Shown piece by piece: positions 53,032 to 56,082 of a DNA stretch of 64,000 nucleotides. The translations under genes and the position numbers were made by a program. Source of the DNA: an uncultured Alphaproteobacteria bacterium. Its GTDB lineage: Bacteria > Pseudomonadota > Alphaproteobacteria > Methylaequorales > Methylaequoraceae. The stretch covers positions 11,711 through 75,710 of the forward strand of contig CABZJY010000005.1 of the NCBI GenBank assembly GCA_902526175.1, given 5' to 3'. How positions within the stretch are numbered: position 1 is the first letter of the stretch; each line of letters starts with the position of its first letter. A model generated the notes under the pieces. It worked only from the letters and a program-made list of their open reading frames with translations, was not told the DNA's origin and did no database searches.

Positions 53032-54864
53032 CTACGGTAGAGCGAAGACAGTTAATACACCACCAAGGTTTGTGTGGTTGTGTAGTGCAGAGTATGCACC
53101 CACAGCACCTAAACCTGCAGTTGGGTCAGTAAGACCAGCAGCTAGACCAATTCCGGCCCATCCACCAACACCTGATAAGATACCAACATATTGCTTACCT
53201 TTGTGTTCGTAAGCCATGAAGTTACCAATAATACCAGAAGGTGTTTTGAACGAGAATAGTTCTTTACCTGTTTTACTGTCAACAGCTTTAGCATAACCTT
53301 CTAATGTTCCATAGAATGTAATACCACCGGCAGTTGCCATAGCACCACTCCATACAGAGAATGGCTCTGGGTTAGACCATACGATCTTACCTTTATCAGC
53401 ATCCCATGCAATGAAGTTACCTAGGTGAGTTCCGCCTGGAGCTGGGTACATTGATAATGTAGCACCAACATAAGCGTTACCAGCAACGTAGTCTACCTTG
53501 AATGGCTCATAGTCCATACAAACGTGGTTTGTTGGTACCATGAATAAACCAGATAGTCTATCGTAAGCAGCAGGCTGTTGGTCCTTAGTACCTAGAGCCG
53601 CTGGGCAGATGTTAGTTGTATTAACATCTTCACCTTGGTGAGCTGTTGAATATCTGTCAACAACTTGTGGACGACCAGTTTTCATATCAACGTGTGTTGC
53701 CCAGTTCACAGCTGGATCGTACTTCTCAGCTACTAATAGCTCACCAGAAGCTCTATCCATTGTGTAAGCAAAACCGTTACGGTCGAAGTGTACAAGAGCC
53801 TTACGGTTCTTGCCTTTTACTTTCATGTCAACAAGAATCATCTCGTTAACTCCGTCGTAATCCCACTCATCATATGGAGTCATCTGATATAACCATTTAG
53901 CCATACCATTGTCTGGGTTACGAGCGTTAATTGTCATAGACCATTTGTTGTCACCAGGACGAACAACTGGGTTCCATGTTGATGGGTTACCTGTACCGTA
54001 GTACAAAGTGTTTAATTTAGAGTCATAACCGTAGAAACCCCAAATTGAACCACCACCAATTTTCCATGCATCACCAGGCCAAGTTTTCAAGCTTGAATCT
54101 TTGCCTACAGGCTTAAGCATAGATGTAGTTTTACTAGGATCAACTAACATATCGGCATCAGGGCCCATACTGTAAGCTCTCCATAGTCTTTTACCAGTTT
54201 TGATGTCATACTGTGTCCAGTTACATCTAACACCGAACTCAGCACCAGAACATCCTACACCAACCATATCTTTAATGATGAATGGCTGACCTGAACCAGT
54301 AGATGCAGAAACACCATATTTACCAGTACCAGAGTGAAGGTTAGTTGTAACCCACTTCTCTTTACCAGTTTTAGCGTCTAATGCAATTACTGAAGTATCA
54401 GCAGCGTGTAGAACGATTGTACCATTTGGATGGTAGTTAACACCACGGTTTACGTTGTCACAGCACATAACTGAGATAACTCTGTCCATAGTCTCACCAC
54501 CTGGATACTTACCACCCTTAACTGGGTTGTACTTCCACATGATCCTTTGGTTGTCATTAAGATCTAAAGCGTACACAATGTTAGGAATCGCAGTGTGAAC
54601 ATACATTACGTCTCCGATTACAAGTGGACCACCTTCGTGACCTCTAAGTACACCAGTAGAAAAAGTCCAAGCGACTTTTAAGCTACCAACATTACTTTTA
54701 TTGATTTGATCCAATTCAGAGTAACGGTGTCCGGCATAGTCACCTGACTGCTGTACCCACTGTGATGGATCTTTCATCATCTTCTCAAGTTTAGCGTTAG
54801 CAGATACTAGACCTGGTAATGCTAATGCAGCAGAAGCGATGAGGGTTTTTTTTAAAATACTCAT
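53032..54864 (-). CDS. xoxF: Lanthanide-dependent PQQ methanol dehydrogenase XoxF (XoxF5-like)
   Basis: [30 protein letters not shown] with the extra Ln-ligand Asp, [12 protein letters not shown]; ATG at 54864 with signal peptide preferred over GTG at 54906. Confidence 0.96.
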
Positions 54865-54999
54865 AGAATATTTTTCCCTTTTATTTGAGTTAATAATAAA
54901 GCGCACAAATGTACGCTCGATTTGATTTGAAGTACATCAAAACCTAACAAAATTTAATGTGTTAGTTGATTCCTCCCAAAAAGACTTTCGTCTTTTGAT
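54865..54999 (-). ncRNA. Candidate structured 5' leader of xoxF
   Basis: Three hairpins at 54979-54996 (GAAA loop), 54936-54970 and 54899-54918 (two G-U pairs on the sense strand), plus an internal GGGAGGA. Confidence 0.4.
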
Positions 55000-55034
55000 T
55001 ATATATTATAATTAAAATTGTCAATTTCAAGCAA
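54998..55034 (-). promoter_or_regulatory. Putative sigma70 promoter(s) of xoxF
   Basis: Minus strand TTGCTT-N18-TATAAT (55034-55005) or TTGACA-N15-TATAAT (55024-54998). Confidence 0.5.
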
Positions 55035-55048
55035 AAAATGAATGCAGG

Positions 55049-55076
55049 ATGAACAAAATATACACAATTTGTTCAT
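55049..55076. promoter_or_regulatory. Inverted repeat, candidate transcription-factor operator
   Basis: ATGAACAAA-N10-TTTGTTCAT, perfect 9-bp arms just upstream of the xoxF -35. Confidence 0.45.
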
Positions 55077-55257: not shown

Positions 55258-56082
55258 ATGAGACATAATCATATCAATTATCTAATACTACTTTTATTTG
55301 TTGTCTTCTTCTTTAAGGTTGTAGATGCAGATGATCAATTACCTCCTCAAACAACATGGCAAACTAGTCTCAAGGATATGGTTTTTGGTAACGATGAAAT
55401 TTTTGATGGAAAAGATATTATTTCCCTCGAAACACCTTATCGAGCTTTGGATGCCGCAATAGTTCCAATTAAAGTGAAATTTAACAAAATTCAAGATAAA
55501 AACCTTTATGTTAAACATATAACAGTTGTTGTTGATGAGAACCCATCTCCTGTTGTAGGTAAATTTTCTACTTTTTTGAAAACTGGAAGCGCAGATATTT
55601 CAACAAGAGTAAGAGTTGATAAATATACATATGTTAGAGCAATAGCTGAAATGAGTGATGGTAAGAAATATATGGTGCAAAATTTTGTCAAAGCAGCTGG
55701 TGGATGCTCAGCTCCAAGTCTTGCTGATATGGATACAGTGATGACCAGACTAGGCAAAATGAAAATGAAGTTTCTTCATACAGGCTTAAAAGGAGAGGTG
55801 AATAAGGCAAAATTAGTAATAAGCCATCCAAATTTCTCTGGTTTACAGTTCAATCAACTCACGAGAACTGAGATTCCGGCACATTTTGTTGATTCAGTTT
55901 CAATAACTCAAGATGAAAGTAAAATTCTTGAAGTTACACCAGATATATCTTTATCCGAAGACCCAAACATTACATTTCATTATATGAATTCTGGCGGTCC
56001 TTTAAATGTTATCGTAACAGATAGCGATGGCGGAAAATTTACAAAAAGCTGGCCTGTTAATCAATTAATTAGTAAGAATTAA
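55258..56082 (+). CDS. Quinoprotein dehydrogenase-associated fused SoxYZ-like carrier protein
   Basis: Signal peptide; PYRALDAAIVP, DENPSP, TRVRVDKYT, VKAAGGCSAP, HPNFSGLQ, SLSEDP. Confidence 0.88.
   Translation: MRHNHINYLILLLFVVFFFKVVDADDQLPPQTTWQTSLKDMVFGNDEIFDGKDIISLETPYRALDAAIVPIKVKFNKIQDKNLYVKHITVVVDENPSPVVGKFSTFLKTGSADISTRVRVDKYTYVRAIAEMSDGKKYMVQNFVKAAGGCSAPSLADMDTVMTRLGKMKMKFLHTGLKGEVNKAKLVISHPNFSGLQFNQLTRTEIPAHFVDSVSITQDESKILEVTPDISLSEDPNITFHYMNSGGPLNVIVTDSDGGKFTKSWPVNQLISKN

Follow-up and report, generated by a model that had tools for sequence, protein, structure and literature searches.

An undescribed leader RNA motif specific to xoxF in one family of marine Alphaproteobacteria

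The DNA analysed here (the window, a stretch of 64,000 nucleotides) contains xoxF on the minus strand (53032-54864, ATG at 54864), which encodes a PQQ beta-propeller dehydrogenase of 610 amino acids (PF01011, 3e-53). Between this gene and a SoxY-SoxZ fusion gene, which is divergent from it and starts at 55258 on the plus strand, lies a leader that the original prediction described as a new regulatory RNA. Is it a genuine RNA element, and if it is, what would it do for the xoxF message?

The setting is that of a methanol oxidation locus in a small marine genome. On the 3' side of xoxF, Pfam matches identify a cytochrome c and then a periplasmic binding protein (SBP), which gives the order xoxF-xoxG-xoxJ. 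The nearest public genomes belong to uncultured marine Alphaproteobacteria and are single-cell genomes and MAGs of 0.8-2.0 Mb. Our comparison covers the order to which the window belongs; in the genome collection used it comprises a single family of 14 genera, represented by 42 species genomes. Labels such as L010 or L166 denote loci or genomes of these relatives, and C1, C9 and the like are contigs of the window's own genome. XoxF proteins of most genera are 94-97% identical to each other (90% in one), and the four-fold degenerate sites of xoxF are 62% T and 32% A, with G+C only 6%. Such codon bias and protein identity are signatures that mark a very highly expressed gene, and XoxF probably belongs to the most plentiful proteins in these uncultured bacteria, which are widespread in the ocean.

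Anatomy of the leader and its promoter

All three hairpins of the original prediction and its GGGAGGA word are indeed present on the minus strand, which is the sense strand of xoxF. The 135-nt sense strand folds with -28.9 kcal/mol (z -3.63), a value that 200 dinucleotide shuffles never reached; the antisense strand has a z of only -1.81, and the fold is thus significant on the sense strand only. Read from the 5' end, the leader begins with P1, a terminal hairpin AAAAGAC-GAAA-GUCUUUU (54979..54996, minus strand, like all features of the leader), seen in the fold. The Shine-Dalgarno-like (SD-like) word GGGAGGAAUCAA follows (54966..54977); it is invariant, and its 3' part is at the same time the 5' strand of P2. 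P2 itself is a long imperfect hairpin in which AUCAACUAAC pairs with GUUAG..UUGAU, closed by GGAG/CUUC (54929..54976). After the linker AAAUCAAAUC (54919..54928) comes P3, a G+C-rich hairpin GAGCGUAC-AUUU-GUGCGCUU (54899..54918), which is seen in the fold and has its pairing kept in relatives. An A/U-rich box UAUUAUUAAC (consensus A-AAUAUUAAC; 54889..54898) lies between P3 and the true ribosome binding site (RBS), AAAAGGGAAAAAUAUUCU (54871..54882; together with the xoxF start codon, 54862..54882). In this box A85 and T87-A89 are invariant in alignment A1, and they are conserved in alignment A6.

The two SD-like sequences of the leader deserve to be kept apart. The true SD sits in an open A-rich stretch 3' of P3 and has an accessibility of 0.3-0.4 in the window. 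An RNA thermometer of the ROSE or fourU kind was rejected on this ground, as the last hairpin does not pair the SD. The upstream word GGGAGGA was said to have no start codon behind it, and this is correct: no ATG, GTG or TTG lies within SD range. Its GGAGG is complementary to the CCUCC of the 16S 3' end of the same genome, GGAUCACCUCCUUUCU, and two G of this GGAGG are paired within P2. We also considered a leader peptide translated after GGGAGG and rejected it, since there is no canonical start, the open frames 5' of xoxF vary from 4 to 37 codons, and there is no conserved ORF. An extended complementarity of GGAGG..AUC to the 16S tail was put down to coincidence, since window-type variants that are without one A lose the pairing.

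A consensus scan finds a promoter of the sigma-70 type, TTGAAA-16-TAATAT, at 55003..55030 on the minus strand, and CTTGAA(T)-16-TAATAT is kept at the same position in relatives. Because we assume the usual distance of 7 nt from the -10 element, transcription is predicted to start at about 54996, that is, at the first paired base of P1. A second promoter at the UUAAC box was rejected; it has no usable -35, and its TAATAT-like hexamer is not kept in the largest genus.

Further 5', at 55038..55076 (minus strand), conservation points to a putative array of regulator sites where a protein may bind. It consists of direct repeats GTTCAT-N5-ATTCAT at 55054..55038 and of an inverted pair ATGAACAAA...TTTGTTCAT at 55076..55049 (ATGAACA..TGTTCAT). 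TTCAT-N6-TTCAT is kept immediately 5' of the xoxF -35 in all genera (L004-L038, L139-L185), and most genera have a further ATTCA between -35 and -10. A spacing of about 11 bp between half-sites is typical of OmpR/PhoB-type regulators, and the TTCAT array looks like a site for a regulator of this type. The genome encodes four response regulators in all, namely one PhoB-like (on C9), one OmpR-like (on C1) and two NtrC-like. None of the four is encoded within the window, where no two-component regulator lies, and this agrees with the statement in the original prediction that the window lacks regulators of the MxbDM/MxcQE type. The conserved repeats suggest that on/off control of xoxF is more likely transcriptional, through a protein at these sites, and the repeat-bearing promoter is a concrete handle for finding the transcription factor.

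TTCAT-N6-TTCAT with a T-run, as at xoxF, also occurs at two other promoters, C7:50767 (plus strand) and C2:29077 (minus strand). The genes behind them encode one exported fasciclin-like protein and one periplasmic binding protein. These promoters could belong to the same regulon or could be due to chance in an AT-rich genome, which has 20 such sites genome-wide.

Conservation, pairing and distribution of the element

To follow the leader through the family we built a covariance model from five leaders (R1), which was rebuilt from 27 (R2); its E-values are rough owing to a shortened calibration. Another 47 leaders came from metagenome contigs, which were scanned by pattern; the final alignment comprises 73 sequences (63 distinct). 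Alignments were made with the covariance model, as MAFFT with RNAalifold on the raw leaders misaligned P2. Alignments made in this way lean towards the structure of the model, and this was mitigated by controls with slid partners and with shuffles.

R2 gives exactly one match per genome in 28 of the 42 genomes and in 10 of the 14 genera (the window at a rough E of 1.9e-5). The matches always lie directly 5' of xoxF and end about 20 nt before its start codon, as the original prediction had it in placing the RNA in the xoxF leader, and all 65 collected leaders continue with ATGAGTATTTT. The word occurs once in the genome, and searches for a second copy elsewhere in it with the covariance model, the word and blastn gave none. 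Outside the family R2 had no match among 72 xoxF loci of other Proteobacteria, and none, under strict filters, among 397 other genomes of the class. A permissive scan of the window leader and of the loci of 12 relatives against Rfam 15 matched no family; the best match in the window leader was STnc320 with 26 bits, against a gathering score of 50. The claim that this RNA is new to the databases thus held when the Rfam scan proposed along with it was run.

The common plan of these leaders, from 5' to 3', is TTCAT-N6-TTCAT; CTTGAAT-16-TAATAT; a hairpin in some genera; GGGAGGAAAUCAA(A); a long hairpin closed by GGGAGGAAAUCAA and UUGAUUCC; a G+C-rich hairpin of variable sequence; A-AAUAUUAAC; and AAAGGAGAAAUACUUU-AUG. 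Two genera are without this canonical leader. L002 (genus g4) is without the 5' word, and L003 (genus g10) has a degenerate word UGGAGGGAU at the 5' position. Both carry GGGAGGA as the true SD, whereas the true SD is the weaker AAGGAGA where the 5' word is present. This hints that one strong SD-like element may be needed somewhere in the leader.

Is the pairing conserved as such? Standard pairs fill 93.6% of the cells, compared with 87.4% in shuffles and 19-59% with slid partners. Two-sided changes occur at 10 of the 20 pairs, in 71 cells where 20 are expected. P3 is 100% paired in the 63 leaders, and three of its four core pairs covary (G-C/A-U; C-G/U-A). The extension of P3 differs entirely between lineages and always pairs: GGGUAG/CUACCC, GGGUUU/AAACCC, GAGCUU/AAGCUC and GGACGAAA/UUCGUCC. 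Within inner P2, seven of eight pairs have changes on both sides. The covariation check that the original prediction had proposed for relatives' leaders therefore comes out in favour of an RNA, with covariation in both P2 and P3. An all-against-all scan of column pairs for extra helices, pseudoknots or junctions returned only P2, P3 and phylogenetic noise, and the hairpin loops, the P2-P3 linker and the helix lengths vary freely between leaders.

The outer pairs of P2 (GGAA/UUCC, UCAA/UUGA) behave differently from the inner ones. Their 5' side never varies, and their 3' side changes only to G-U pairs (about 32 cells); in total, about 45 G-U cells are valid only on the sense strand of xoxF. Two things follow from the outer pairs. 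The pairing must operate at the level of RNA and on the sense strand, and the 5' strand must be under an extra, sequence-specific constraint beyond pairing. This strand belongs to the 13-nt word GGGAGGAAAUCAA (GGGAGGAA), which is invariant in the 63 distinct leaders. Lack of time does not account for the invariance, since genera agree at only about 76% of the four-fold sites of xoxF.

An invariant word so near a promoter could also be explained at the level of DNA, with GGGAGGAAATCAA serving as an operator or promoter-proximal site and the hairpins as by-products. The word would fit such a role by its invariance and by its place, at +1..+13 of the predicted start in most genera. In seven genera, however, P1 shifts it 23-35 bp downstream with its sequence unchanged. 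Moreover, the partner strand changes only from C to U and from A to G, so that pairs are kept in RNA and symmetry in DNA is not; nor would by-products show the covariation of P3 and inner P2. In our opinion this explanation is highly improbable.

P1 has a history of its own. It is absent from most genera, and there GGGAGG begins 5-9 nt after the -10. A hairpin occurs in 13 distinct leaders, including the window and four window-type metagenome sequences; the 13 are of unrelated or weakly related sequence, often AAGG..CCUU, and sit exactly in the interval that separates the -10 from GGGAGG, always beginning 7-11 nt downstream of the -10. Each of them beats its shuffles (p 0.000-0.043). P1 is therefore real but lineage-specific. 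Given these distances, the 5' terminus is always formed by a hairpin or by the SD-like word, if the start is as predicted, and the median number of unpaired 5' nucleotides in the predicted folds of 65 leaders is 1. The original prediction also remarked on the UCAAAUCAAAUC linker and on a GNRA loop in P1; both exist in the window but are not conserved in relatives. A pairing of an AAUCAA linker with the 3' strand of P2 was dismissed for the same reason, as the linker is not conserved.

The two-state fold proposed for the window, in which AUCAAAA at the 5' end would pair with UUUUGAU, fares no better. The two segments are in the sequence, but P1, which the pairing would displace, is missing from most genera, and the arrangement is not conserved. 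In L166, the nearest relative, the 5' arm reads AGCAAAA while its partner is the same as in the window, and the change goes uncompensated. The arm in the window (54999..54997) is located at or upstream of the predicted +1.

Based on all this, we regard the element as a genuine, undescribed leader RNA motif of xoxF, specific to this gene and to one streamlined marine alphaproteobacterial family. The motif is now defined through a covariance model and an alignment, with 63 distinct examples.

How the leader might act

We tentatively prefer, with somewhat less than even confidence, the reading that the leader is a 5' stabiliser of the xoxF message that boosts its expression. Transcription would begin at about 54996 from the TTGAAA-16-TAATAT promoter, and the message would present, in this order, P1, the start-less SD-like word GGGAGGAAUCAA, P2, P3, the A/U-rich box and a mostly open true RBS. 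The terminal stem-loop, together with a 30S subunit that may be parked on the start-less word, would block RNases that depend on the 5' end (RNase J/E type). The blocked end would in turn give a longer life to the mRNA and more XoxF, and on/off control would be left to a DNA-binding protein at the TTCAT repeats 5' of the promoter.

Several of the observations speak for a stabiliser: the fold on the sense strand only, the single copy ahead of xoxF, and the compensatory changes in P2 and P3. So does the position of a hairpin or of the SD-like word at the predicted 5' end of all leaders, as does the match of GGAGG to the CCUCC of 16S with no start codon after it. The true RBS is unmasked in the window, and its accessibility is unaffected when the 5' strand is blocked. 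The codon bias and the identity of XoxF across genera indicate very high expression. L002, without the 5' word, has GGGAGGA as its true SD, and so does L003 with its degenerate one. The window's genome encodes a full-length RNase J-like protein, as do all 14 genera (TIGR00649, E 1.6e-114); the match of 381 bits is just under the curated NCBIfam cut-off of 400.

There are also points against it. A plain stabiliser does not account for an invariance that covers all 13 nt of GGGAGGAAAUCAA, with AAAUCAA after GGGAGG, rather than GGAGG alone. It gives no reason for the retention of P2, P3 and the UUAAC box, and the pairing of two G of GGAGG within P2 would compete with the 30S subunit. Finally, elements of the STAB-SD type are documented in Gram-positives and not in Alphaproteobacteria.

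The invariance is something that a switch would explain. The invariant 5' word may be a decoy SD, a sensor strand for the 30S subunit, for a protein or for a small RNA, in a two-state control of translation. When the word is bound, the loop and 3' strand of P2 would be freed to pair further 3', with the true SD and the UUAAC box, and translation would be off; when P2 is formed, the SD would be free. This accounts both for the invariance of the word and for the UUAAC box, which resembles the 5' strand of P2. The best case for it comes from L010 and L012, which belong to one genus. There the loop and 3' strand of P2, CUUCUUUGUUAUGGUU, pair with AACCGUAAUAAAGGAG, which comprises the conserved box and the true SD, over 15-16 contiguous bp, and this alternative helix (dG -19.6 kcal/mol, z -4.9) lies within the minimum-energy fold. 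A strong helix is also found in L008, L183, L165 and L156, and a borderline one in L132, L011 and L018. With the 5' strand blocked, the SD in 29 of 65 leaders drops to an accessibility under 0.2. As an observation on the L010 leader itself (L010:3351-3434, minus strand, and the next ~25 nt to the RBS), its alternative helix uses the box UUAACCGUAAUAAAGGAG.

Yet the helix is absent from the window (dG -5.2, z +0.4; SD accessibility 0.36 against 0.32 when blocked) and from window-type metagenome leaders, and it is weak in the most species-rich genus (L005, L031). The covariation GAAC/GUUC of P2 in L008 is not followed by the box, which leaves a mismatch in the helix. No trigger was found either: the genome has no CsrA gene, and no complementary sequence occurs elsewhere in it. 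We regard the two-state control as unlikely for the element as a whole; within part of the family, though not family-wide, it is a rival to be taken seriously. The broader idea of a new, xoxF-specific RNA switch, in which occupancy of GGGAGGAAAUCAA by a ligand, a protein, a small RNA or the ribosome decides between P2 and the masking of the RBS, seems to us equally doubtful; under it, the decoy SD would keep the silent message stable. If a switch did turn out to be true, abundant bacteria of the ocean would control their lanthanide-dependent oxidation of methanol post-transcriptionally.

CsrA itself can be set aside. The word had been called CsrA-like, but PF02599 is matched in none of the 42 genomes, while control genomes gave matches. 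A leader bound by CsrA was also rejected from the position of the GGA, which lies in the 5' tail and stem and not in a hairpin loop.

A more specific form of switch was suggested by the original prediction, namely a leader that responds to metal, PQQ or C1 compounds. Its aptamer would be built of P2, P3 and the conserved unpaired letters, with a lanthanide, PQQ, formaldehyde or a C1 carrier as the ligand. It is true that a conserved and covarying leader with an invariant block, outside Rfam and attached to one gene of one pathway, is what one would look for in a riboswitch, and that a genome with four response regulators has very few protein regulators to do the work. The anatomy, however, gives this idea no support. 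Loops, linker and helix lengths are variable, there is no junction or pseudoknot and no conserved pocket-like loop, and the invariant block is one strand of a helix with a 4-nt 5' tail. There is no conserved terminator (the P3 tails of relatives are AAAUAUUAAU), and the window has no platform for masking the SD. The motif is confined to one family (0/397 other genomes; 0/72 other xoxF loci), and two genera express xoxF without the canonical element (no word in L002, a degenerate one in L003). The promoter, moreover, has conserved sites of the kind that proteins use. The fae genes, for formaldehyde-activating enzyme, are without the element as well. There are two of them in the genome, at C5:76071-76544 (minus strand) and C15:1865-2359 (plus strand), and the regions 5' of both hold unrelated sequence with no leader or promoter of the xoxF type. 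Our search of the literature gave no paper that links xoxF to a riboswitch, the co-mentions being unrelated. Altogether we consider a riboswitch very unlikely.

P3 might alternatively be an intrinsic terminator that stops most transcripts unless pairing upstream prevents it. In the window lineage P3 indeed looks like one, with a U-rich tail after the stem. The stem in the window has 8 bp and leads into UUUAUUAUU, and nothing else in the region resembles a terminator (1 site against 0.2 expected). GAUGUAC in the 3' tail of P2 (54931-54937, minus strand) is complementary to GUACAU atop P3 (54906-54914, minus strand) and could open it. But the U tail is not kept in relatives, where A-rich tails follow P3 (AAAUAUUAAU, AUAAUAUUAAC), and only the window and the near-identical metagenome relative L166 have the GAUGUAC insertion. 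A constitutive terminator before a gene expressed at the top level is also improbable in itself. We therefore judge an attenuator to be more doubtful still than a riboswitch.

Relation to known leaders

How does the xoxF leader compare with RNA elements that are already understood? With translational riboswitches and other SD-sequestering leaders it shares the conservation of a leader and, in some genera, a helix that masks the SD and competes with P2. It differs from them in being without conserved pocket-like loops or junctions, and its helix is missing in the window and weak in the largest genus.

The stabiliser that we tentatively prefer has closer parallels. A 5'-terminal stem-loop protects the ompA and papA messages of E. 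coli, and the stability of ompA is tied to RNase E and to Hfq with small RNAs. Occlusion of the 5' end, a strong start-less SD, or both, stabilise mRNAs such as ermC, atpE and cryIIIA, according to the review PMC3997798.

The same review cites the STAB-SD and related stabilisers of Gram-positives (cryIIIA, ermC, aprE; Agaisse & Lereclus 1996, cited in PMC3997798), which resemble the xoxF leader in having a start-less SD-like sequence near the 5' end. The likeness extends to the long leader of a very highly expressed gene, to the stem-loop at the extreme 5' end and to an RNase J-type enzyme encoded in the genome. The xoxF word is different in being 13 nt long, invariant and half-buried in a hairpin; it is followed by two more hairpins, its host is alphaproteobacterial, and stabilisation by it is, in our case, a proposal. 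If the leader is a stabiliser, the principle of a 5' hairpin and a start-less SD would reach beyond Gram-positives to Alphaproteobacteria, and the leader could find use as a compact part for expression in AT-rich hosts.

The 5' UTR of E. coli ompA (133 nt; Arnold, Yu & Belasco 1998, likewise as cited in PMC3997798) consists of a 5' hairpin, single strands, a second hairpin and the RBS. It has no sequence or Rfam relationship to the xoxF leader, and it is without a decoy SD. The two are nevertheless alike in length and layout, in a 5' stem-loop with almost no unpaired 5' nucleotides, in having hairpins further inside, in an open RBS and in serving an abundant exported protein.
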